A DNA stretch of 64,000 nt. It comes from a phage. Under the pieces are notes generated by a model. That model worked only from the letters and a program-made list of their open reading frames with translations. It was not told where the DNA came from and made no database searches. Of this stretch, positions 467 to 58,674 are shown one piece after another. The translations under genes were made by a program, and so were the position numbers. The stretch's first letter is position 1. Every line of letters starts with the position of its first letter. The stretch lies in the NCBI GenBank assembly GCA_025829515.1, contig GCA_025829515.1_4865.1, one strand, 5' to 3'.

Positions 467-516
467 TTACGCGTTATCCTCATGTTGTGACAGCATTACC
501 TTTTGAGGGCATTACA

Positions 517-1518
517 ATGAAAACTGTGGCTAAATTGTTCCGCAGCAGCATTCGCTCTGCCGAGTTCCAAAATAACGTCGGTACCGATACTGTACGAGCA
601 CGCCGCCTAAAAGAGTTTCTAAAGGACGAGACTTATTCTGTTTACGTGGTCCGGAATAAAGAAACCTGGGAGGGTTATTTAGTGGCCACCTATCGACACG
701 GTGACCCTACACTAACCTGTCACTATTTTGAGGAGTTTGTACCTGGGGCGTTCGATAAAGTTGGTTTGGCCCTTGTGCTCGACCATACCGGATTCGAATA
801 TATGTCGTGCCCAGCACCTACTGACGATGTTGAACAAAAACTGGTCGAAAAAGGGTTTGTTCTTTCAGATATCGTTTGGGCATGTCATTCTAAACTGTTT
901 GACAAAGTAATCACCGCATCAGAAATCAAGATTATTTCTGGTGATGCATACGCAGAACTTACCAAGGAAGATAAAGACGTTATCCTGAATTTGATTAGCG
1001 GTGCAATTTGCGAAGAGTTAGAGTACGATGTGCGCGGCTACTATACACACATTGGTCCGTTAGCAGAAACAGTAATAGCAAGAATTCAGCACGCTAATGT
1101 GGAGACTGCAATTTGGCGAGACGGTCATGATATCGTCGGTATTGCCCAGATGCGCTTGGTTACACCAGGCGTCGTTGAACTTTCTGGTTTAACCGTTGCA
1201 CCTACGCACCGTAAACGTGGCATTGGTCGCCGGCTAATGGGCGCGCTATTCGATTTCGCACAACGTCATTCCGACCAAGTCTATATTGAAACAGCTGCTG
1301 ATAATAATCCAGCAAATCACCTGTACGGCAACATCTTACGTTGCAAGCAGGTACTGCGTACACTAACGTTGAAACGCGATCCTGAACTTATTAGCTGGAA
1401 ACGGGTGAATGGGAACCGCGCCGATCGAGTGCTGAAAGAAGAACCTAGCATTCCGGTGGAGACTACAACCAGGCTGACTATCAGTGATATGTTTCAATCT
1501 GGCATGAGAGGATGTTAA
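517..1518 (+). CDS. GNAT-family acetyltransferase-like protein
   Basis: start moved to ATG at 517 (gagg SD upstream); C-terminal region has an acetyl-CoA-binding-type motif R-K-R-G-I-G-R-R-L (R/Q-x-x-G-x-G/A). Confidence 0.55.
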   Translation: MKTVAKLFRSSIRSAEFQNNVGTDTVRARRLKEFLKDETYSVYVVRNKETWEGYLVATYRHGDPTLTCHYFEEFVPGAFDKVGLALVLDHTGFEYMSCPAPTDDVEQKLVEKGFVLSDIVWACHSKLFDKVITASEIKIISGDAYAELTKEDKDVILNLISGAICEELEYDVRGYYTHIGPLAETVIARIQHANVETAIWRDGHDIVGIAQMRLVTPGVVELSGLTVAPTHRKRGIGRRLMGALFDFAQRHSDQVYIETAADNNPANHLYGNILRCKQVLRTLTLKRDPELISWKRVNGNRADRVLKEEPSIPVETTTRLTISDMFQSGMRGC

Positions 1519-1521
1519 CGG

Positions 1522-2340
1522 GTGATAAAACCAATTTTAAAATGGATGGGTGGTAAGAGTCGTGTACTGCCCGAGCTGCTACAGGTGTTTCCGGATGCTG
1601 AGTATTTCGTTGAACCTTTTGTGGGCGCAGGGTCAGTGTTTTTAAACACTAAATACCCGAACTATATTCTCGGCGACACGAACCCGGACTTAATCGAGTT
1701 ACTGACCATGGCGCGCGATCGTCCGGAAGCGCTGATTCTGGAAGCAAAGGCGCTCTTTGCAAATGGGACGGACCGCGGTCTCTACATGGAACGGCGCGAG
1801 GGATTTAACAGCGAAGCAACCACGGGGAAACCTAATCTCCAGCGCGCCGCGATGTTCCTGTATCTTACACGTCATGGTTACAATGGTTTGTGCAGATACA
1901 ATCAGTCGGGTGGGTTTAACGTGCCCTATGGTCAACACCCGAACGGTGTCTATTTCCCTGAAGAGGAAATTCTGGCGTGGGCAAAACGTTGTTCGGAAAC
2001 CAACGTCGAGCTGCTCTGCGCGGACTTCCGCGACATCCTAAATAAGTGCCCATCTAACGCTGTGATATACGCCGACCCGCCCTACATCCCACTTTCGGAT
2101 ACGGCTAAACATGCGCAGTATCACAGCAAAGAATTTTCACAAGCTGACCACCGCGAGTTAGCGAAACTTTTAAAACAACAAGCTGCCGATGGCAATAAGG
2201 TCGTTCTGTCAAACGCAGATACGTTACTCACACGTGACATCTACTACGGTTTTACCTGGCGTGAAGTTCAGGTGGGCCGATATATGTCCGCCGATGCGAA
2301 TAAACGTAAAGCGGTGACAGAGCTAATCGGCACCTTATAA
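1522..2340 (+). CDS. dam: DNA adenine methyltransferase, Dam family (GATC-type)
   Basis: GTG start; motifs VEPFVGAGSVFLNT (AdoMet binding), LYLTRHGYNGLCRYN and catalytic DPPY, near-collinear with E. coli Dam. Confidence 0.9.
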   Translation: MIKPILKWMGGKSRVLPELLQVFPDAEYFVEPFVGAGSVFLNTKYPNYILGDTNPDLIELLTMARDRPEALILEAKALFANGTDRGLYMERREGFNSEATTGKPNLQRAAMFLYLTRHGYNGLCRYNQSGGFNVPYGQHPNGVYFPEEEILAWAKRCSETNVELLCADFRDILNKCPSNAVIYADPPYIPLSDTAKHAQYHSKEFSQADHRELAKLLKQQAADGNKVVLSNADTLLTRDIYYGFTWREVQVGRYMSADANKRKAVTELIGTL

Positions 2341-6387: not shown

Positions 6388-6858
6388 ATGCCAGTTTTAT
6401 ACGGTGGTGTGGATCTGAAAGTTTTGGATCGGTTTAAACTACGGGCATCCGAAGCGCTCGTAAACGGTTGGGTCGAGCGTGGGGTACGGGATGCGTGTGA
6501 AGTTATTTGCCGTTACCCCGGCGCGACGACAATGTGGTCATGTCATGGACACGGACCATATTCTAAAAAGAACTCGCCAGGGGAGTTCCATGTAGTGTTT
6601 GTTCTTGGTGTTGGCTTTGAGCACAAAGCGCATGAGCTAGTTGCTGAGTTAATGAAAGCGGATATTCCACCGTTGTGGGATTTATCCATGGCGAGACTCA
6701 TGTACCCTGATGATGATTTCGTTTATGACCTCAGCGAAATCACCCTGAAAAACACGTATAACGCGTGGAAGATAACGTATCGTTATCTGCACACCGAACA
6801 ATCCCTTCGTGAAATTCGTAAAGTATTCCACACAGTTTGCAAAAAGGTTTTTAACTAA
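6388..6858 (+). CDS. hypothetical protein
   Basis: 156-aa ORF with taaggaga SD. Confidence 0.55.
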   Translation: MPVLYGGVDLKVLDRFKLRASEALVNGWVERGVRDACEVICRYPGATTMWSCHGHGPYSKKNSPGEFHVVFVLGVGFEHKAHELVAELMKADIPPLWDLSMARLMYPDDDFVYDLSEITLKNTYNAWKITYRYLHTEQSLREIRKVFHTVCKKVFN

Positions 6859-8000: not shown

Positions 8001-9008
8001 ATGGCGAAGCTCGTTTCGTTTTCAGCAGGGTTGGATTCCACCTGGATAATGTATCAGCTGCTATGCAAAGCACCGGCCAATGAAGCACGACATGTCCGTC
8101 CTGCGTATTTCTCCATGTGGAATGGAGGTAACGCGAACTTCATGGAAATTCTTTGTAGCGTGGCCATTGTTGAACGGTTGATGGATAGACACCATGCACA
8201 AACCGATCATGTTACATGGGCGGTGCTCGGGGAAGAGAACTTCCCGCCTGTCGTTAGCGCTGGATATGCTAACGGCTGGTCGCCTCTGGTTCAGCAGGGC
8301 AATGTTGTTAACGGTCTCGCTAAACTGATGTGTGGTATTACGCGCAAACAGCACCACGCCTATGCAGTTGTTGGTTGGAATAAGCTAGATGCGTTGGAGA
8401 ATAGTCTAGAGCTGGGAGATTGGACATTAGACGAGTACGCTCGCTTAAAGAACCTCTATAGCGAATTGATGTATTTCCAAGATCATGCCGGTCGCGTTCC
8501 ACCGCTTCTAACACCTGCGTGGGATAAAGAGAAACTGGAAATGTGGCAGGAGTTGCCGGAAGATATTCGTAGGTTGGTACAGGTCAGTAACTACAACAAC
8601 TACGAATTCGCGATAGACCGTGAGAATAACGTGCTCATCGTTTATGCCAATCCGTCAGCAAAGTCGCAGAATTATCGTAGTCTTGGTATTACACCGTCAG
8701 TGGGATGGGAGATTAAAATCAACGATGCTTACAGACGGGTATGGTGTTCTGCTCTTGGTAGTGCTATTTCTGCTATGGGTTTGGACGTGCCGGCTTTTGC
8801 TAACTTTAAGGACACGGAAAGAAACCACACGACCTTTACGGTAAGTGAAGATACTGACCGGTTATGTATCACATCGTTTACCGCGGAAGAGTGGTGCGAG
8901 TATGCGCCACATTTTAAAGCGCTTCAGGAGAAAGAAAAAGAGATAGCGAAAAATGCCAAAGCAAGTAAAGCTGTGGACGCTCCAACTGGCGAAGTGGCGG
9001 ATAGCTGA
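8001..9008 (+). CDS. PP-loop-like (adenine nucleotide alpha-hydrolase superfamily) protein, function unknown
   Basis: N-terminal VSFSAGLDST resembles the SGGxDS PP-loop ATP-pyrophosphatase motif; gaggtaaagg SD. Confidence 0.45.
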   Translation: MAKLVSFSAGLDSTWIMYQLLCKAPANEARHVRPAYFSMWNGGNANFMEILCSVAIVERLMDRHHAQTDHVTWAVLGEENFPPVVSAGYANGWSPLVQQGNVVNGLAKLMCGITRKQHHAYAVVGWNKLDALENSLELGDWTLDEYARLKNLYSELMYFQDHAGRVPPLLTPAWDKEKLEMWQELPEDIRRLVQVSNYNNYEFAIDRENNVLIVYANPSAKSQNYRSLGITPSVGWEIKINDAYRRVWCSALGSAISAMGLDVPAFANFKDTERNHTTFTVSEDTDRLCITSFTAEEWCEYAPHFKALQEKEKEIAKNAKASKAVDAPTGEVADS

Positions 9009-9347: not shown

Positions 9348-9743
9348 GTGAAATTGATTATGCCTAAAACAGTTCCTAATCAGGATATGGTTACGACTAC
9401 ACTGTTTTCTGAATCATTACGTAACTCTGTACGTCAGACCGCTTCACGTCTAGACGTAGCAGTTGAAGAACTCGACCCAGAAATCTTCATGAAGTATGCG
9501 TTTATTGCAGAAGGTTACGCGATCGCCCTGAGTTATGCGCGGTATGTCGATGACGTGACAGAAGCTAAACGTTATTTAGAAGGCTGTTGTCAAGTTTTCC
9601 GTGAAGAAATCACCGAGATGGAGATGGTTGACCGCGGCTTACCTGAATTTGTAAAGGTGGGTTACGATAAGCTGTTGCAATCCATCGCGGATGAAATCGG
9701 ACGTCGCGGGTTAACTGTAGTGCACAGCGCTACACTGCACTAA
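9348..9743 (+). CDS. hypothetical protein
   Basis: GTG start with taaggagag SD. Confidence 0.5.
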   Translation: MKLIMPKTVPNQDMVTTTLFSESLRNSVRQTASRLDVAVEELDPEIFMKYAFIAEGYAIALSYARYVDDVTEAKRYLEGCCQVFREEITEMEMVDRGLPEFVKVGYDKLLQSIADEIGRRGLTVVHSATLH

Positions 9744-9755
9744 CACCGTACGAGT

Positions 9756-9800
9756 AGGCTACCACACGATCATATGTGTGGTAGCTTATTTTTTTTGTTT
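9756..9800 (+). terminator. intrinsic terminator
   Basis: gctaccacac...gtgtggtagc hairpin followed by ttattttttttg. Confidence 0.75.
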
Positions 9801-9812
9801 CTGGAGGCGTTA

Positions 9813-10346
9813 ATGGCAGACCGCTATCAGCCCGACCTAACACTCTCGTCGAAAGCGCTTGTCGTGGCGTTGATTAATCACGATAACGGCTTGTCATTAT
9901 CGCCTGACGAGATTGTGATAAGCGGGGTAGGGCCTATCGACTTAGGTGTTGAAAGTGCCCGTACCACGCAAGCGTACATTGCAAAAGCACGTAAACCTAA
10001 CGGTAAGAAGATTACCGTCTATTACGACCGTCTAGCTGCTAATAAGATTATCGACCCGCAAGGACCGATACTGGTTACTGTAGCTCCCGGCGACACCTAT
10101 GCTGATTTAGCGACAGTTGTAAACCAGTTGTGCGGTTTAAACTTGTCACGTGAGGACATCTCGACAGGGGTTATTACACCAACAAACGAGCCGTTGATTG
10201 CACCGATGAGTGACGATTCGCCGGCTTGGACGGCTACCTTTACATTCACGGCGTTTAATGAAAAAGAAGCTGTGGCAAGTCTGGATGAAGAAACTGTTTT
10301 ATGCATCGGTGATGATGCAGTGTTAACCTACGGAGACGATGCATAA
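9813..10346 (+). CDS. distant member of the paralogous anchor-domain family (see 19063-39074)
   Basis: start moved to ATG at 9813 (ggagg SD, downstream of terminator); shares the ITVYYDRL and LCGLNLSREDI motifs with the array genes. Confidence 0.5.
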   Translation: MADRYQPDLTLSSKALVVALINHDNGLSLSPDEIVISGVGPIDLGVESARTTQAYIAKARKPNGKKITVYYDRLAANKIIDPQGPILVTVAPGDTYADLATVVNQLCGLNLSREDISTGVITPTNEPLIAPMSDDSPAWTATFTFTAFNEKEAVASLDEETVLCIGDDAVLTYGDDA

Positions 10347-43247: not shown

Positions 43248-43789
43248 TCGTCCTCCTCAATCAGGCCAAGTTCTAACAACAAACCGAAGTCCAGCATCTG
43301 GAAGTCCTGATCGAGGTTACCGGCCCACAACAGAGAAATGTTGTGTTGCTCTTCTTCTTCCAACTGCGGGAGCAGGTGTTCTTCGAAGATTTGACGCTCT
43401 GTGTAATAAGCGTCAACCGGGTTATTGGAGCGTAAGTTACGAATACGCATCCGCGGGAAAGACAAGCCCAAAGCCACTAAACTTTCAGGACTGGCTTCAT
43501 CAATAGAGTGACGTAGCAGTTCGATTTTGTGGCGTGGGTATGCAAGCAGTCGCTTCTCAAAGCCAGGGTTGCGCTTTTCGATTTCCGCGACAGACTCGTG
43601 TCCTTTCTCAACGCAGTAGACCGGGATCATCACGTTCAGCCCGTATTTAATCAACAGGCTTTGGATTTCATCAGTGAAGTCTTCCCCTGCCACAATTGCG
43701 TGCACATTGTACAGCTTGCTTTTGCGCAGGAAGCGATCGACCAAGTGCAGTTTACGCTTCGTAAAATTGTGAATCAGTATTGACTTCAT
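43223..43789 (-). CDS. hypothetical protein
   Basis: start trimmed to ATG at 43789 (GGAG SD); overlaps the upstream radical SAM gene by 38 nt. Confidence 0.5.
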   Translation of the reverse strand: MKSILIHNFTKRKLHLVDRFLRKSKLYNVHAIVAGEDFTDEIQSLLIKYGLNVMIPVYCVEKGHESVAEIEKRNPGFEKRLLAYPRHKIELLRHSIDEASPESLVALGLSFPRMRIRNLRSNNPVDAYYTERQIFEEHLLPQLEEEEQHNISLLWAGNLDQDFQMLDFGLLLELGLIEEDECLLLTKA

Positions 43790-45080
43790 TCTGGGCTCCG
43801 TTTTGTAATTTTTCTGCTTCGGCACGTTGGCGTACACAACGTGAACAATAGCACATGGATTTATCATGCAAATCTGATGCGCGAGTCGTACCAGTTTTCT
43901 GATACCAATATTCCGCCGCCATCAGCTTCGCAGTAGTCCAACCACACTGACGACGCTCGGCGTGATACGCTTTACGGTCTTCCAGTGTACCTTCACCGTT
44001 TTCGTACGATGCTGCTGCGCAGCTACCGCAGCTGTGTTTCATCGGACACCCTAAACAGGTTTCTGGGTAGTTGGTGTACTGCGTTTGAATCTCTTCTAAC
44101 AGCTTACCGCCGTCCAGGCTCACAAACTCACGACCAACCAGTTCCGCTACAGCAGAGCGGGAAGTTACCGTGGACATGAAACGGTTACAACCGTAAATCT
44201 TGCGATCAAAGCCGAGACAGGTCATGTGCGTCAACGTACCGCAGTACGGTTTCAGGCGTTCTGGGTCGAGACGAACAGAGTCGTCATGTAAGAGTTTGTC
44301 ACGCCAATCCGGGTCCCAAGTTGCCATAAAGTTCAGGCCATCCGGGATGATGTGTGTAATCGTGTTACGCGGGTTGGTGTGCAGACCCTTCTCAATCCAG
44401 TAGTCCATCACGTCCATCATCTGGTTCGCGATATCCAACGCCATATGGCGCGGCAGGATATCTTCGTACGTTACGTTACCAGAGATGGTACCACCGCCGG
44501 ACATGTCAATTAACGATTTCATGCTGGCGGCATAGTGCGGCAATGTATCGATCGTAAACGTCGCCTTTACGCCCAGCTCAGCGATGCCAACACTCTTCAG
44601 ATAATTGTAACCGCGTACCGCAGCTTCGTACGACCCTTCACGCGTCGTGGTAAAGATACGATATTTGTCATGGACTTCAGGTAAACCATCGATGGAGACC
44701 CCAATAGACAGTTTGTCTTTCCAGCGCTCGATAATTTCTTTGTTCAGCGGACGGTCCAGAAGCGTACCGTTCGTGGAGATACTGAACATATACGGGCGAT
44801 TGTGTTCTGCGCATAACTTCTCTGCGGTTTCAAAGGCCGCCAAAAGAAGTTTAGGCTGCATGAACGGCTCACCACCGATGATATCGATGATGACTTCAAC
44901 GTTCGGGATATCTTTATCACGCTCGAAACAAGCGTGGATAAAATCAATCACGTCTGCTACTTTGTTGTTACGCGGATATTTACGCTCGTAGCAGTATTCG
45001 CAGTCCAGGTTACATGACAGGTTAGTCACAACCTGATACGTGCGTGGTGTGTACTGGATTTGCTGTTCGCTATTACTCAT
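43752..45080 (-). CDS. radical SAM enzyme with SPASM/twitch-type Cys-rich C-terminal domain
   Basis: CNLDCEYC (CX3CX2C), IIGGEPFM, TNGTLL, C-terminal cysteines CGTLTHMTC...CNRF...CLGCPMKHSCGSCAA; ATG overlaps upstream stop. Confidence 0.8.
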   Translation of the reverse strand: MSNSEQQIQYTPRTYQVVTNLSCNLDCEYCYERKYPRNNKVADVIDFIHACFERDKDIPNVEVIIDIIGGEPFMQPKLLLAAFETAEKLCAEHNRPYMFSISTNGTLLDRPLNKEIIERWKDKLSIGVSIDGLPEVHDKYRIFTTTREGSYEAAVRGYNYLKSVGIAELGVKATFTIDTLPHYAASMKSLIDMSGGGTISGNVTYEDILPRHMALDIANQMMDVMDYWIEKGLHTNPRNTITHIIPDGLNFMATWDPDWRDKLLHDDSVRLDPERLKPYCGTLTHMTCLGFDRKIYGCNRFMSTVTSRSAVAELVGREFVSLDGGKLLEEIQTQYTNYPETCLGCPMKHSCGSCAAASYENGEGTLEDRKAYHAERRQCGWTTAKLMAAEYWYQKTGTTRASDLHDKSMCYCSRCVRQRAEAEKLQNGAQNEVNTDSQFYEA

Positions 45081-45987
45081 TGTTCGCCGCCCGTTTACGC
45101 TTAGCAGAAATTACACGGTTGATGTAGTTATACGCATCAACGCCGATAGAACGCGCCAGGCGATTACAGCCGACTTCCAATATCTCTGGGGCGTTCTGAA
45201 TTTGCTCCTGCGTACCGTCGGCGTTAAGCCACAGCACTTCACTGCACGTGTTGCACTCGGTATCGAACATTTTACTGATCGCAAGCCCACATTCAGAATC
45301 GTTCTGCATGTTAAGGCGTTCGATATTGTCGAGTATTTTCCAATACCCGTACATGAAGTTCATGACGTGGTCTGGCGATAACGGTTTCGGCATCATCGCA
45401 TCAAACAACAACGACACACCACCTGGACGGTAATGATAGATTGCTCGGTGCAGCTCGATGAAATCTTCGTACCAGCGTTTATCACCTAACTGGTCACGCG
45501 TCATCACACCCCAGGTGTAATAGTTGTCCAGCTCGTACAGCACTTCCAGCGCTTCGTGATTACCACCGTTTACAAAGTTCATAAACGGACGTTCCGACTT
45601 CTTGTAGCCGTCAATGGACACAAAGATAAGGTCGAACTGTTTCAGCAACGGCAGATGTGACTTACGCATCTTTAAACCGTTGGTGTACATGTGATGACGG
45701 AGGTTCGGATGAGACTCCTTCAACTCGTTCACGAAGTCTTCAATCTTACGCTGCGCTAACAGCGGCTCACCGCCCGTCCAATGAATCTCACCGATATCCG
45801 GATTCTTCTCTAAAATAGAGAGAATCTCTTCACGTTGAAACTCACGAGAAGTATCTTCTCTATCCATGTAATAAGCCCCTCCACAGAAGCTACAGTCTAA
45901 GTTACACTTAGAAGTTGCGACAACCGACAGAATTGACGGTTTGTCGTACAGTTCAGACGAGATCCTGGATTCTACTTGATCTGTCAT
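45073..45987 (-). CDS. radical SAM enzyme
   Basis: CNLDCSFCGG (CX3CX2C), IHWTGGEPLL; start trimmed to ATG at 45987 (GGAG SD). Confidence 0.75.
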   Translation of the reverse strand: MTDQVESRISSELYDKPSILSVVATSKCNLDCSFCGGAYYMDREDTSREFQREEILSILEKNPDIGEIHWTGGEPLLAQRKIEDFVNELKESHPNLRHHMYTNGLKMRKSHLPLLKQFDLIFVSIDGYKKSERPFMNFVNGGNHEALEVLYELDNYYTWGVMTRDQLGDKRWYEDFIELHRAIYHYRPGGVSLLFDAMMPKPLSPDHVMNFMYGYWKILDNIERLNMQNDSECGLAISKMFDTECNTCSEVLWLNADGTQEQIQNAPEILEVGCNRLARSIGVDAYNYINRVISAKRKRAANNE

Positions 45988-46009
45988 TGCAGGTTGCTCC
46001 AGTATATTT

Positions 46010-46897
46010 TTAAATATAATCAATGGCGAATAAAGGATCTTCGTCTACATTAGCGCCGGGCACCAGTAACATCGGGTCGTGATAGGCAGCTAAAATTTTG
46101 TTCAGGTCGGCGTGTCTTTCGTTCAGGCGTTTCAAATCGGCCAACGTTACCGAACGACCACGAATCTCAGAAACAGCTTCTGCTTCTTCTTTCGTTAAAT
46201 CCACCTTCGTTAAGAGGAAACTTACCAGCTTACTCAAATCCGCTTCCGTCGCCGGATAATCCCCATATCGGGTTTGAACCAGATGTTGCATCCACGGTTT
46301 ACGAATACGTTTGGTGATTTCAAAATCGTCAGTCAACGCATACCAGACAGAACGCTTTTTATCCCACACGAACTTATAGCTATACGCCATCATGTCCGCT
46401 AAACGGGTGATGCCAAGTTCTTTATACCCCTCGATATCGATGTATGGTTCGGTGTCGAAATACGTTTCCGTATCGGCAGGTACCAGTACAAAGTAGTAAG
46501 GGAACGAGCCCAGATAGTCCGGACTCCACCAACGGCGCGCCATCGGTTTTGCTTCAAGTTCGTCAAACGGTGTAAACATCAGTTCTAAATCGACGCTGTT
46601 GTTCAAAATCCCTTCACTGAAGAAATACTTACCGTCGACTAACACGCCACGAGAGTTACCATCGCCGTTAAAGATAACGATGGCCTCTGCAACCATATCA
46701 CGGATCTTAAACGTATTTTCTACGGTGTAGTTCTTCTTGTCGGTCAAGAAGCGACCACGAACCTTTGGCCACTCACCAGGAATCTGTGCAATCAGTCTGA
46801 CTTTGTCAGCAAGGTGCGCACGCACTGAATCTGGGGAAGATAGATGCAGCGGGTGGTTGAATGTGGTTTTATACGCAAGATGCAAATCGTTTTTCAT
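46010..46897 (-). CDS. hypothetical protein (295 aa) between the peptides and the radical SAM genes
   Basis: GGAG SD; no recognisable motif. Confidence 0.55.
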   Translation of the reverse strand: MKNDLHLAYKTTFNHPLHLSSPDSVRAHLADKVRLIAQIPGEWPKVRGRFLTDKKNYTVENTFKIRDMVAEAIVIFNGDGNSRGVLVDGKYFFSEGILNNSVDLELMFTPFDELEAKPMARRWWSPDYLGSFPYYFVLVPADTETYFDTEPYIDIEGYKELGITRLADMMAYSYKFVWDKKRSVWYALTDDFEITKRIRKPWMQHLVQTRYGDYPATEADLSKLVSFLLTKVDLTKEEAEAVSEIRGRSVTLADLKRLNERHADLNKILAAYHDPMLLVPGANVDEDPLFAIDYI

Positions 46898-54543: not shown

Positions 54544-57500
54544 CTAAGAGGCCCACTCACCCGAGTTGTTGCCTTCGTTTCTACGTTCAGTATCCAACGT
54601 TTGTAAAATCCAATCCCATGTCCTGGTGGGGATGTGGAATGGATTACGCTTCTCAATGAGAATCGTCTCGCCACCCGTGCGAAGTTCCACCGGTGTCGTT
54701 TCAGTAATCACGAACATCGGATTACCACTACTGCCCACGCCATTAATAGTGAACTTCGCTTGCAGCGGCGGCACAGAACCTTCCGGAGGCACGAACACGA
54801 TGTGAATTGGCTGCATCGGTTTCGTGCGGGCAAGTGTCCCAGATATCTGAACAGCTGTTGTCGATGCACTGAAAGGTATAACATTACCCGGAATTTTCTC
54901 ACTACCCACGATGATATATCCAGGGTAGTTAGAGAGCATTGTCCCATTTACCGACACAAAACGCTCATTTTGAGTTGGGCGATAAGCCCGCATAAAGCCG
55001 TACTTCCATTCACCACCGTTAGACGTATAGTCTGCAGGAGCCGACTCAAGTAGCGGAGCACCACGTTTCTGCAGCCCTTTGTAAAACGGCGCTGGGAGTT
55101 TACCGTTCGGTGCAAGTTCCGGATAACCCTCACTTGCAGCAGACATCGTGATGTATTCCGTAACCGGGTTATCGACGTTATCTCCAAAGTTCGCGAACGC
55201 GACGGTTGATATCGACATCTCCTCATGCCCAGAAGACTGGCTGTCCGGAGAACGCTCAATATACGACTCAAATAGCGAGCGTAGATAATGGAAACGATTT
55301 AAATCTACTTCTGTTGTGGAAGGGTCCATCAAACCGTGGTTGATAGTGACACCTTCACCAGTTTCGAGGCCAGTAACACTAATCGATAAAGCGCCGCCTT
55401 TAAAATAATCAATCGCGTCAAACGGAATGTCGTATTCTATCTCACGAACAGTCGCCGAAGCCTGCCCACCTATCTTACTAATCGACGATATTCGCAGTAT
55501 CTGCGTATCAACAATATAGCGATAACGAATAAGCCAGCGCGAACCAATGGCTGCGAACTCGCTAGCGATTGAAACCGGGAGATAGTCTAAACAGTCAGGC
55601 GACTGAACATCCACGCTCTTGATTACACGAGGAGCATCAACCAGCGTATTAGTAACGCTGGATTGTGTGCTGGCAATTCTTCCGGTTGGTTTATCGTACG
55701 GCGCGGCAATAAAGCCACAATTTAAACTGGTCTTGGAGTTACTCCACCGCAGGACTCTGGTTTTACCTTTCTCATCAGCAGAAGGGGCCATGAAGTTTAA
55801 TGAAACTTCGACGTCCGAGGTTTTTGGGACTTCAGGATAATCAGTGTCGATTACCACCGAACCCTCGAATGTCGCCATTCCGTTTTCTTTCGGGTTGCTT
55901 GGTGTAAACCAGCAATACGGGGACGCGTTTTCAGTAGAAACAACCGCCGCAAGAAGAATCCTGAGCGAGGTGGCACTTACGAATTTATAATCAAATAACC
56001 CACGGTCTAAACGAACGAGGTTATCCCCAGAAACAGACGGGTTAGTTGGATACGCGTACAGCCATTGTTTAGGTAACGGATCAACCTTATTCAACGGCAG
56101 CATTTTCGGGTTATCCGTCAATGACCAGTCGGTGTTACTCACCCCGTGTGCCAGACGTGTTTCGAAGTGCCGTTTAAGTTCGGACGCCATGCCAAAATCA
56201 AACGTCGTTTCAAACTCGTAAGTCGTGCCTGCAACCAATCCCGCGTCAGGGACATCGATGTGTCCGATATAGCCGCGTTCCAAGTTAATACCTTCCGTGT
56301 CCACAATAGGTTCGGCGCGCGAATATAACGCATCGGTTATCATGTTCACATAGAGGTAATGCCTTAAACCGTTCGGCGTCTTAACAAACTCCTGCAGGCG
56401 GGCAACTTTAGTGTTTTTATCCGAGGCCCCAACCGCAAAGTCACCGTCGTAAACTGTGAAACGAATTGCGGCTGCTTTAGCGCTATCGTTACACTCGGCA
56501 CGGAATGCTAAGCAATGTTGCTTCCACCCCTTCTTGACAGTCGCCTCCAGATACCCCGCTTCTGTAATACCCGCACCGATAATTTCACCGTCCAGATAAA
56601 CAGAAACAGCACCACCGCCACGAACCCAAATCCGCAGCTTACCAGAGTCGCAACGAACCCATGTTTTCGCCAAGAGGTTAACGACCGACAAATCACCCAT
56701 TCCGGTTGTCGTTAAACCAATCTGCGCACCGTAGTTCGTTTCCGGGACGGCAACCTCAAACCCACTAAAATCAATACCGGCACCGGTATTGATTACCGCG
56801 TTCTGCCACGTTCTTTCCATACGGTTATCTGGAGAGAACCACTGGAACATCGGCGTGGTTTGCAGGTCTATCGAACCAGATACCGTCCCCTCTTTACGTG
56901 CACCATTTAACAGATAGAAATAATTCAAATCCGTTACGGCGAGTGTGGTACGTGTAGATCCCACAGTCCAAGTCTTGCCGCGCACCGCGGCAAAATCGGT
57001 CACGGAGTCCTCTTTCGCGTTTGCTAGCGCAGCTGCAACTACGTCTAAACGTTTTGACAAATCGTTCAGAACGTTTGGGGTAACGCCGCGATTATCCGAC
57101 AAGCCATTTAGGTTGGTAGAATATCGAGCGATACCGGGCACTGTTTGAGAAGCCGTTGGGATCTGTAAATCGGCGAAGTTGTGATGGTGGCCTTTATCAC
57201 TAAGACCAGTAACTGCTTCTGCCAACGCATCAGAAAGTGGTTTATCGACGTCAGCTGTGTTATCAGCCAAGTCCAGACCCAAATCCTTTTTCGTTAGCGT
57301 TCGGCTACCAGTGTCCATCGGCTGGTTATTCAGCAGCGTTGTCTTCCTGACGTACGAAGACAGATCACCCTCGTACGGTAAGAGCGAAGCTGGGGTGGCT
57401 GCTTGTCCCTTGACTACATCGCTCGGCTTATCAGTCAGCGTCACAACGCCGGGTTCAGAGGTCGTCGCGGGTTTGGCTGTGACCTTCCCGGTGACGGGAT

Positions 57501-58674
57501 CGGCTTTTGACCCTTTACCCGTGAAAGTAATGCCGTTCACCCCGCTAATGTACAGTTTGTTGTCATCCGGGTCAACGGTACCACCGCCGGTACCAGGGTC
57601 TTGTTGATAGCCCATGAGAGCAGTTGTGGTCAGTAACGTCGTACCATTAAGCGTCAGCTTATCCATCCCCAAGGCACTGCCAGTCGACTCAATACGTAAT
57701 GTATTGATGCCTGCTTTCCACTCCATAAACCGGACGGTTCCAGTAGTGTCGGCATACCCACACGCCAACACAACAGAGCCATTAGATTTAAGAGTGAATG
57801 CCTCAGCAGAGAACACAATTTCGGATTCACCAGCAGGAGAACGGAACAGGGCACGAGTACCGGATATCGTCGCATTAAACACCCCTCTGGATTCTTTCGA
57901 TACCCATTTAGAAATGTACTTGTCGATATCCGATTGTTGCAGACCCAGTGCACGGACCTCGCTGGTTAACTGACGCAACGTCTTTCCATACGCCAGGAAA
58001 GTATCTGGCGTTTTCAGGTTGACAGGATGCGCACCGGCCTGCGCCGCGGTAGTCCCATGAGGGTTAGTCGACGCAATGTGTCCGGGGTAGTTAAATGTGG
58101 CGATTTCAGTTCCTAAGCCCAAAACCGCATCTTTCAGCTCAGTAAGCTTTTCACGAATCTGCTCGTTGGCCGCCCCGGCATCTAACTCCACATCATGCAC
58201 TGCAGAGGCAACATACTTTTTATTCAGCATGTCTGACCAAGCTACCGCTGCAGGGGTGGCTGGGTACAGGGAAGGTCGATTACCTAAAAGCAGCCAATCT
58301 GCAGCCGTTGGATTGTTGAGTGCCTTAATTAGCTCATCCAACATCTCAATCAAACCACTGTAAAACGTACCCCCGAGCATCTGGCCTTCAAAGACCACCG
58401 CACCACGCAGTTTAGGGTTAATAAGATGCACCCCGCAAAACACCGGGGTCGTCACCGAGTCGTCCAACGGTGTTAAAGCATACTCCAGCTCATAGTCCGT
58501 CCCGCGGGTAAGCGGTATGGACGAGCCGGCGAGCCTTACCACCAATCCTTCGAAAAACGGGCGATGATCTAGCATCACCACCCGATCGTTAGGATTGTCG
58601 GAGTCGATGATACGTTCCTCGATGAAGTGACACTCGGGATTCACACCCCGAGGATCGTAAGGATACGTTTTCAT
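54544..58674 (-). CDS. tail fibre protein (1376 aa)
   Basis: AAGGAG SD; shaft repeats QTVPGIARYST, GVTPNVLNDL, ATPASLLPYEG resemble the T4 gp34/gp12 repeat. Confidence 0.75.
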   Translation of the reverse strand: MKTYPYDPRGVNPECHFIEERIIDSDNPNDRVVMLDHRPFFEGLVVRLAGSSIPLTRGTDYELEYALTPLDDSVTTPVFCGVHLINPKLRGAVVFEGQMLGGTFYSGLIEMLDELIKALNNPTAADWLLLGNRPSLYPATPAAVAWSDMLNKKYVASAVHDVELDAGAANEQIREKLTELKDAVLGLGTEIATFNYPGHIASTNPHGTTAAQAGAHPVNLKTPDTFLAYGKTLRQLTSEVRALGLQQSDIDKYISKWVSKESRGVFNATISGTRALFRSPAGESEIVFSAEAFTLKSNGSVVLACGYADTTGTVRFMEWKAGINTLRIESTGSALGMDKLTLNGTTLLTTTALMGYQQDPGTGGGTVDPDDNKLYISGVNGITFTGKGSKADPVTGKVTAKPATTSEPGVVTLTDKPSDVVKGQAATPASLLPYEGDLSSYVRKTTLLNNQPMDTGSRTLTKKDLGLDLADNTADVDKPLSDALAEAVTGLSDKGHHHNFADLQIPTASQTVPGIARYSTNLNGLSDNRGVTPNVLNDLSKRLDVVAAALANAKEDSVTDFAAVRGKTWTVGSTRTTLAVTDLNYFYLLNGARKEGTVSGSIDLQTTPMFQWFSPDNRMERTWQNAVINTGAGIDFSGFEVAVPETNYGAQIGLTTTGMGDLSVVNLLAKTWVRCDSGKLRIWVRGGGAVSVYLDGEIIGAGITEAGYLEATVKKGWKQHCLAFRAECNDSAKAAAIRFTVYDGDFAVGASDKNTKVARLQEFVKTPNGLRHYLYVNMITDALYSRAEPIVDTEGINLERGYIGHIDVPDAGLVAGTTYEFETTFDFGMASELKRHFETRLAHGVSNTDWSLTDNPKMLPLNKVDPLPKQWLYAYPTNPSVSGDNLVRLDRGLFDYKFVSATSLRILLAAVVSTENASPYCWFTPSNPKENGMATFEGSVVIDTDYPEVPKTSDVEVSLNFMAPSADEKGKTRVLRWSNSKTSLNCGFIAAPYDKPTGRIASTQSSVTNTLVDAPRVIKSVDVQSPDCLDYLPVSIASEFAAIGSRWLIRYRYIVDTQILRISSISKIGGQASATVREIEYDIPFDAIDYFKGGALSISVTGLETGEGVTINHGLMDPSTTEVDLNRFHYLRSLFESYIERSPDSQSSGHEEMSISTVAFANFGDNVDNPVTEYITMSAASEGYPELAPNGKLPAPFYKGLQKRGAPLLESAPADYTSNGGEWKYGFMRAYRPTQNERFVSVNGTMLSNYPGYIIVGSEKIPGNVIPFSASTTAVQISGTLARTKPMQPIHIVFVPPEGSVPPLQAKFTINGVGSSGNPMFVITETTPVELRTGGETILIEKRNPFHIPTRTWDWILQTLDTERRNEGNNSGEWAS

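Follow-up and report, generated by a model that had tools for sequence, protein, structure and literature searches.

The subject of this analysis is the open reading frame (ORF) 8001..9008 in a stretch of 64,000 nucleotides of phage DNA (NCBI GenBank assembly GCA_025829515.1, contig GCA_025829515.1_4865.1), further referred to as the window. The ORF lies between a remnant of an HslU-like gene and a DUF488-N3a gene. It encodes a protein of 335 amino acids with the N-terminus MAKLVSFSAGLDSTW, of which residues 5-14 read V-S-F-S-A-G-L-D-S-T and resemble the phosphate-binding loop (PP-loop) of ATP pyrophosphatases. Judged from family-level profiles and a predicted structure, this protein is a highly diverged member of the PP-loop ATP pyrophosphatase class, closest to QueC.

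The PP-loop protein and its family

Around the ORF, the DNA has 99% identity with Salmonella phage SPLA1a and 95% with SPN3US, which are Seoulvirus members, 240-kb phiKZ-like jumbo phages. SPN3US_0119 (RefSeq ACQ60_gp147) is the orthologue, and in all records examined it carries the label 'hypothetical protein'. When the protein was searched by itself, its sole family match was phrog_8825, to which no function is assigned (E = 1.1e-136, residues 1-335 on profile positions 1-343 of 348). Literature searches on SPN3US gp119, on PP-loop proteins in jumbo phages and on QueC in Chimalliviridae returned nothing relevant. The gene is under strong purifying selection, with a ratio of non-synonymous to synonymous changes (dN/dS) of 0.095 in the comparison with SPN3US and 0.11 for SPN3US versus SPAsTU. 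Constraint is tighter over the first 200 codons than over the remainder.

The PP-loop-like string had been pointed out in a first-pass annotation, made from the sequence alone, and we found both the string and the ORF (plus strand) exactly as described there. By itself the motif is weak evidence and not beyond chance in the window. The relaxed pattern S[GA]GxDS occurred twice in the six-frame translation of the window against approximately 0.2 expected occurrences, and the other copy, at 55031 (+), is antisense to the long minus-strand ORF 54544..58674. In the AlphaFold2 model of the protein (12 homologues as input, predicted local distance difference test (pLDDT) score 84, predicted template modelling score (pTM) 0.86) the motif is placed between strand 1 (residues 2-6) and helix 1 (residues 11-23). 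Across 46 relatives, which share 15-35% identity, the loop reads [ST]-x-G-[LVI]-[DE]-S-T, with the consensus AFSGGLDSTY. G10 and S13 are unchanged in 46/46 and position 8 is S or T in all, while the second loop position varies (G in 32, A in 8, S in 3, C in 2, T in 1). In alignments its counterpart in E. coli QueC is SGGQDST, and in the PDB it is matched with the PP-loops of Cap9, QueC and TilS chains. We judge it to be real because of its position in the model, its conservation in the 46 relatives, and the profile and fold matches to PP-loop enzymes.

The family is very small: 17 clusters were found in a set of 5.8 billion proteins and 46 representatives in one of 1.84 billion. All conservation counts given here refer to columns of the alignment of these 46 members. 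A second round of the word-indexed protein search with a broad profile gave few additional relatives and no names, and the narrow family alignment found four loci only in the viral contig collection. Scanned singly, 15 of the 46 members matched Pfam QueC (best E = 2.4e-6) and 10 matched ATP_bind_3, a PP-loop family of the TilS type. The family profile searched against the PDB identified Cap9 (9nto_B, E = 3.7e-5), QueC (E = 1.6e-3), TilS, nitrile synthetase and LarE. Further, we compared the family profile with eight E. coli PP-loop enzymes using hhalign. The match to QueC reached 95% probability over 161 columns, that is, over the entire catalytic domain. TilS was matched at 92-94% probability over 21 columns and ThiI over 51 columns; probabilities for MnmA, GuaA, NadE, TtcA and ArgG were low.

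The predicted structure pointed to the same class. In the Foldseek search against the PDB, 12/12 matches at E ≤ 0.001 were PP-loop enzymes (YcfA 9kqd/9kq7, GMP synthase, LarE), and the matches spanned approximately 160-210 columns. In the viral structure library the matches were members of its own family, followed by jumbo-phage proteins that bear the name 7-cyano-7-deazaguanine synthase (RSF1, Noxifer). The protein thus has the loop placement of the PP-loop superfamily and a Rossmann-like alpha/beta fold that can be superposed on its enzymes, with similarity to curated profiles at the family level only. The suggestion of the first-pass annotation that this is an ATP pyrophosphatase of the QueC, TilS or MnmA type is supported by both the fold and the family-level profiles, QueC being the nearest.

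Conservation is concentrated in the core of the protein. G10, S13, Q98, G125, P172, K178 and K221 are unchanged in the 46 sequences and all are present in the window protein. The invariant or near-invariant signature of the family comprises Q98-Q99, G125-W126-x-K-x-D130-x-x-E133, Y146, P172-x-W174-x-x-x-K178-x-E-M-W and K221-x-x-E-Y225-x-x-x-G229-I, and the window protein retains all of it except E224. Position 49 is E in 43/46 members, and there is no invariant cysteine in the family. The C-terminal extension has accumulated more non-synonymous divergence than the core.

We also compared the protein with QueC (Pfam PF06508; E. coli b0444; PDB 3bl5, 2pg3), using the hhalign register and the column counts to establish residue correspondence. 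QueC adenylates 7-carboxy-7-deazaguanine (CDG), its residues Y35, R99, Y131 and Y189 are essential, and its signature consists of YxQxHxxE (35-42), VPxRN, YPDC (131-134) and a C(x)8CxxCxxC zinc site near the C-terminus (PMC13329287). The two proteins have the same fold and the same N-terminal PP-loop. In the window protein, E49 is the counterpart of QueC E42, N101 that of the N in VPxRN, and K178 that of K165 in 'PL...K.E.W'. Otherwise, 4/5 of the published QueC signature elements are absent from the window protein. YxQxHxxE is represented by S-M-W-N-G-G-N-A...E49, where only the final E is kept and Y35 is replaced by M, a position variable in the family. VPxRN is represented by V97-Q-Q-G100-N101, with the essential R99 replaced by G100 and with Q98-Q99 as the family residues, and YPDC by G139-D-W-T. 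No cysteine pattern of the zinc type was found in the family; the hhalign alignment ends before that region, and in the window protein a beta-hairpin and a helix with K221, Y225 and G229 take the place of the cysteine cluster. The window protein also has approximately 100 additional C-terminal residues and scores below the Pfam QueC threshold. Since the substrate motifs and the zinc site of QueC have been exchanged for another conserved set that includes two tryptophans, the substrate is probably not CDG.

The distribution of the family was assessed by tblastn and contig look-ups. Members were found in Seoulvirus, in Erwinia jumbo phages (Machinavirus, Wellington, Kwan, Asesino, phiEaH2 and others), in Pseudomonas phage EL and its relatives (EL gp200), in Klebsiella phage Miami (gp102, 'rossmann fold-containing protein'), in Aeromonas phages AhC3_1 and AerS_266 (the latter copy labelled 'queuosine biosynthesis protein'), in Salmonella phage SA002, in Erwinia phages pEa_SNUABM_37/48 and in metagenomic contigs with phiKZ-type markers (Peptidase_S80, phiKZ_gp29PR). 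We found no cellular members, and no clear member by sequence in Phikzvirus itself. In all examined contexts the family was found only in phiKZ-like (nucleus-forming) jumbo phages.

Neighbouring genes and other features of the window

The features identified in the window are presented in Table 1.

Table 1. Coordinates of the PP-loop gene, its parts and other features of the window.
Feature	Position	Strand	Basis and remarks
PP-loop protein gene	8001..9008	+	335 amino acids, ATG start, GAGG-type ribosome-binding site upstream
PP-loop motif S8-A-G-L-D-S-T14, variant of SGGxDS(T)	8022..8042	+	Alignment, model, profile matches
Conserved catalytic core, residues 1 to ~240	8001..8720	+	Column counts on 46 sequences; profile matches of relatives end at ~residue 240
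C-terminal extension, residues ~241-335, long helix 295-325	8721..9005	+	Alignment, model; lineage-specific, without conservation outside the Seoulvirus/Erwinia-phage branch
HslU/ClpX-like AAA+ remnant, 75 amino acids	7765..7992	+	NCBIfam hslU 1.7e-15 on residues 4-68 only; phrog_4339 positions 2-70/552
DUF488-N3a gene, 127 amino acids	8953..9336	+	Pfam PF22751 7e-12, PF04343 3e-6
Last gene of the unit, 131-amino-acid protein, phrog_17719	9348..9743	+	No Pfam or NCBIfam family
Terminator-like hairpin, 17-bp stem followed by a T run	9752..9791	+	Closes the unit ahead of tail genes
Tandem paralogues, 150 and 156 amino acids	5907..6359 and 6388..6858	+	Both full-length phrog_7413
343-amino-acid protein with C-terminal GNAT acetyltransferase domain and ~190-residue unassigned N-terminal part, then D12-class N6-adenine DNA methyltransferase	487..2340	+	Domain matches
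Two adjacent radical SAM genes	43752..46023	-	Model matches

The fragment upstream of the PP-loop gene had already been named as an HslU fragment, and our results agree: it shows 82% identity to residues 1-68 of the 586-amino-acid HslU-like protein of SPAsTU, after which it stops, and it matches the hslU model. The HslU-like gene is full length (572-586 amino acids) in SPAsTU, in Erwinia phages and in one metagenomic relative. In the remnant the Walker A motif reads GPTGTGKM instead of ending in GKT. The window also does not contain the genes of approximately 150 and 110 amino acids that are found between the HslU-like and PP-loop genes in SPN3US and SPAsTU. In several related loci, genes of approximately 145-160 amino acids annotated as 'head maturation protease' or 'virion structural protein' adjoin the HslU-like gene (L028:2210-2656, L023:5039-5512, L001:6357-6842); they are absent from the window. 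By BLASTP these proteins cluster with the 282-287-amino-acid Peptidase_S80 prohead proteases of EL-like phages, and SPN3US has a separate 'peptidase HslV family' gene at 1186..1677. The protease-like paralogue and the adjoining unfoldase-like ATPase may form a functional pair.

Downstream, the DUF488-N3a gene starts 56 nucleotides ahead of the end of the PP-loop gene (overlap 8953..9008). Compared with either SPN3US or SPAsTU, the overlap has no synonymous changes, in contrast to the remainder of the gene, where they are saturated. To judge from this pattern, the overlap fits dual coding, and the two genes are probably translated in a coupled manner. The DUF488-N3a protein has the invariant residues C92, C94 and C100-H101-R102, and its model was predicted with pLDDT 96. 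A DUF488-N3a gene overlaps or adjoins the PP-loop gene in Seoulvirus, in Machinavirus and at locus L011, and lies within 3 kb of it at loci L004 and L009 and in AerS_266. Counting every lineage in which the two genes are adjacent or at most 3 kb apart, the linkage was seen in nine, of which eight are additional to the present one. In EL-like phages, Miami, SA002, AhC3_1, L010 and L014 no DUF488 gene was found in the vicinity, and the downstream ORFs of similar size in these loci are not DUF488. We also considered a frameshift fusion of the PP-loop and DUF488 genes and dropped it, as no DUF488 domain was present in any family member, including those of 438-470 amino acids. The deposits of SPFM1, 6, 7, 8, 9, 12, 14 and 20 (LR535901, LR535904-LR535907, LR535911, LR535912, LR535917) align to the region as numerous short pieces (up to 29-30, 98% identical), and the PP-loop and DUF488 proteins in them are oddly fragmented. 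This looks like frameshift-rich sequence and not biology. At the end of the unit, the mechanically called ORF 9774..10346 begins inside the terminator-like hairpin; the SPN3US annotation starts this gene approximately 40 nucleotides further downstream.

Thymidylate kinase is a direct neighbour of the PP-loop gene in EL-like phages, lies approximately 4 kb away in L011 and, in SPN3US, approximately 10 kb upstream in the same gene block. Clustering of the neighbourhoods of 17 loci indicated synteny only (S80-like protease paralogue, HslU-like ATPase, thymidylate kinase) and brought out no pathway that could be recognised. Since gene order is well kept in these phages, such neighbour links are no proof of a common pathway.

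The first-pass annotation had described the two radical SAM genes, 35 kb away, as peptide-directed and not QueE-like. Our searches agree with this description. The first protein scored best on models of SPASM-type peptide maturases (CXXX-repeat 3e-36, PapB 1e-32, HxsB 6e-21) and the second gave weaker matches, including HxsC (6e-12), none of them reaching a curated cut-off; on the QueE model the radical SAM proteins obtained 40 bits against a cut-off of 260 bits. The two genes may form a phage-encoded peptide-modifying pair. As for the remaining features, the related loci L004 and L009 likewise have two phrog_7413 copies, and the GNAT and methyltransferase pair is likewise located upstream of the PP-loop gene in L004 and L011.

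Proposed function and alternative explanations

We consider it reasonably probable that the protein is a functional PP-loop ATP pyrophosphatase, belonging to a jumbo-phage family that branched from the QueC lineage and adenylating a nucleobase- or nucleotide-like substrate other than CDG. The loop S-A-G-L-D-S-T would grip the beta and gamma phosphates of ATP. AMP would be transferred to an oxygen atom in a carbonyl or carboxylate group of the substrate while pyrophosphate is set free, and a nitrogen nucleophile, most likely ammonia or an amine, would then displace AMP; a sulfur nucleophile appears less likely. The substrate would be a free nucleobase or a nucleotide-like small molecule, made or salvaged during infection. 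We propose this kind of substrate because the characterized relatives act on heteroaromatic rings, because thymidylate kinase recurs in the proximity of the gene, and because the predicted pocket is polar and contains two tryptophans. All these relatives activate a heteroaromatic ring: CDG in QueC, GTP in YcfA, XMP in GMP synthase and pyridinium dicarboxylate in LarE. Our confidence in any particular substrate is much lower than in the overall picture.

Several observations weigh against this proposal. The protein alone had no Pfam, NCBIfam or PADLOC match, and phmmer against the PDB gave chance matches only (E > 0.04; H7, mannonate dehydratase). The scan against PP-loop families suggested by the first-pass annotation was thus negative for the single protein, and to take the lack of a profile hit as grounds for dismissal would wrongly reject the PP-loop idea, since the protein by itself matches no curated model. 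The relationship is visible only through profiles built from the family and through the predicted structure. Foldseek scores were modest (E 4e-4 to 1e-3; template modelling (TM) score 0.35 by query and approximately 0.5 by target). The loop of the window protein is SAG instead of SGG, and at loop position 12, where 30/46 relatives have D, 16/46 have E. No glutaminase, sulfur donor or other pathway partner was recognisable nearby, and the proximity of thymidylate kinase may reflect conserved gene order only. The fold, the homology, the conserved loop and K178, the purifying selection, the loss of the QueC-specific motifs and the absence of a deazaguanine pathway are shown by the data, whereas catalytic activity and adenylation chemistry, like the nature of the substrate and of the nucleophile, are inferred, and this applies above all to the assignment of the substrate.

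We ranked the alternatives in the following order: a non-catalytic nucleotide binder, a Cap9/QatC-like ligase, thiolation with DUF488, tRNA modification and a true QueC. A protein of the first kind would use the PP-loop fold as an ATP- or nucleotide-binding or structural module (a regulator, scaffold or decoy) without adenylation. The essential QueC residues Y35, R99, Y131 and Y189 (PMC13329287) are all replaced here, which would fit such a loss, as would the variable second loop position, the change of D to E in 16/46 relatives and the lack of recognisable partner enzymes. However, the phosphate-contacting G10, S13 and S/T at position 8 are invariant at less than 20% identity, the polar pocket residues E49, Q98, D130, K178 and K221 are conserved in a pattern typical of an active site, and dN/dS is approximately 0.1; a pseudo-enzyme is therefore quite unlikely in our opinion. 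We hold it to be improbable that the protein is a protein-nucleobase ligase of the Cap9/QatC type, which would couple a carboxylated base, or a different acid, at the expense of ATP to some protein of the phage or the host, at its N-terminus or on a side chain, perhaps against host immunity. Cap9 was the best PDB match of the family profile (9nto_B, 3.7e-5), the PADLOC QueC model was matched by 6/46 members (1e-4), and QueC-fold enzymes have become protein ligases twice (PMC13329287). On the other hand, the catalytic signature that Cap9 shares with QueC and the zinc site present in both Cap9 and QatC are absent here, no CD-NTase, QatA, QatB or QatD neighbours were found, and the window protein itself has no PADLOC match. 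Equally improbable, in our view, is a thiolation enzyme in which the PP-loop protein would adenylate a base carbonyl, as in ThiI, MnmA and YcfA, and the cysteine-rich DUF488-N3a protein would supply sulfur. YcfA, first among the structural matches, forms a thioamide on GTP (PMC12494993). The invariant C92, C94 and C100-H-R of DUF488-N3a would suit such a role, and so would the position of its gene, in overlap with or next to the PP-loop gene in Seoulvirus, Machinavirus and L011 and within 3 kb of it in three more lineages. A DUF4326 match in the window was also noted for this reading and was weak (E = 0.008). DUF488-N3 is presumably linked to the rhodanese-phosphatase superfamily. However, the DUF488-N3a model had no significant PDB match and no rhodanese or phosphatase match (best E 7.6e-3, TM < 0.4), the gene was not found near the PP-loop gene in the six contexts listed above, the PP-loop family has no invariant cysteine, and neither a cysteine desulfurase nor a C-S lyase is annotated in SPN3US. 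The statement that ties DUF488-type proteins to this superfamily concerns DUF4326 (PMC9503650). A functional partnership of DUF488-N3a with the PP-loop protein is a hypothesis and so far unsupported.

Modification of phage or host tRNA or another RNA by an enzyme of the TilS, MnmA or TtcA type seems very improbable to us. ATP_bind_3 was matched by 10/46 members, TilS gave 92-94% in hhalign and SPN3US has tRNA genes. Yet the similarity to TilS is confined to 21-41 columns around the loop, no THUMP, PUA or TilS C-terminal tRNA-binding domain was detected, the C-terminal part is not conserved in the family, and there are no iron-sulfur (Fe-S) or catalytic cysteines. A true QueC, that is a preQ0 synthase providing 7-deazaguanine for modification of phage DNA or tRNA, is close to refuted. 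QueC is the closest family by profile, and some records name relatives 'queuosine biosynthesis protein' or '7-cyano-7-deazaguanine synthase'. Against this, YxQxHxxE, VPxRN, YPDC and the zinc motif are missing, and the radical SAM genes are not QueE-like. The first-pass annotation had recognised no other 7-deazaguanine genes in the window, and this holds more widely: the complete RefSeq entry of SPN3US, a genome with 95% identity, lists none of folE, queD, queE and tgt/dpdA (annotation only, with no fresh profile scan of each gene). We rejected canonical QueC on the motif-by-motif comparison and on this genome content.

The proposal of an adenylating enzyme also has a bolder form, in which the QueC-derived jumbo-phage enzyme, with a rebuilt, tryptophan-lined and zinc-less pocket, would carry out chemistry new to PP-loop enzymes. 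For example, a nucleotide, a signalling nucleotide or a base in DNA could be amidated, aminated or thiolated while a nucleus-forming phage infects its host, possibly with involvement of DUF488-N3a, and this could serve DNA protection or counter-defence. We regard this as unlikely. The PP-loop gene is a variation within a known enzyme class and not a new kind of system, and no specific surprising function is indicated by the sequence.

PP-loop enzymes of the QueC branch have recently turned out to be unusually versatile: they take part in the synthesis of preQ0 and of thioguanine nucleotides, in sulfur insertion into a cofactor and in nucleobase-protein conjugation in anti-phage defence. Several genera of nucleus-forming jumbo phages carry an uncharacterised QueC-like branch with a substrate pocket unlike any characterized one. 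Identification of the substrate could uncover a new modification of nucleotides or nucleic acids, or a metabolic reaction peculiar to infection by giant phages. It would also give a function to a gene that dozens of phage genomes list as 'hypothetical' or, wrongly, as 'queuosine biosynthesis'. Where relatives in jumbo phages are named '7-cyano-7-deazaguanine synthase', this name should not be relied on.

Comparison with characterized PP-loop enzymes

The best structural match of the protein was YcfA of Erwinia amylovora, from the 6-thioguanine pathway (PDB 9kqd, 9kq7, 9kq6; E = 3.8e-4, TM by target 0.50, approximately 200 columns). YcfA adenylates GTP and then adds L-cysteine (PMC12494993). 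Both are stand-alone PP-loop proteins, and YcfA itself acts on a purine nucleotide. The identity between them is 10-15%, however, and YcfA has approximately 220 amino acids, without a C-terminal extension. It works together with YcfC, a C-S lyase dependent on pyridoxal phosphate, whereas we found no counterpart of YcfC by the PP-loop gene and no sign of sulfur chemistry.

The tRNA-directed enzymes ThiI, MnmA, TtcA and TilS are more distant. Their tRNA-binding domains and their catalytic or Fe-S cysteines were not found in the PP-loop family (Pfam scans, column counts), and the alignments to ThiI and TilS are limited to 21-51 columns at the loop.

The ATP-pyrophosphatase domain of GMP synthetase and LarE are structural neighbours of the protein. 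They form clusters 6 and 3 of the PF06508 superfamily, in which GMP synthase converts XMP to GMP and LarE acts on pyridinium dicarboxylate mononucleotide (PMC13329287). Like the present family, they have kept SGGxDS and lost the zinc site and the QueC substrate motifs. The GMP synthetase motifs (QGTxxPDxIES, KDEVR and others) and the cysteine or cysteines of LarE are absent from the window protein; E. coli GuaA aligns across the loop only, and the window gene has no glutaminase partner.

Cap9 and QatC, the deazaguanylation ligases of type IV CBASS and QatABCD, differ from the present family in that they retain the zinc site, and Cap9 also the catalytic motifs of QueC (PMC13329287), while the family described here has no zinc motif. 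They serve host defence and act with CD-NTase or QatABD partners, whereas the present family is encoded by phages and none of CD-NTase, QatA, QatB and QatD was found beside the PP-loop gene in the 17 loci. Like the present family, these ligases are PP-loop proteins derived from QueC and repurposed from preQ0 synthesis, and among PDB sequences it is Cap9 that the family profile matches best.

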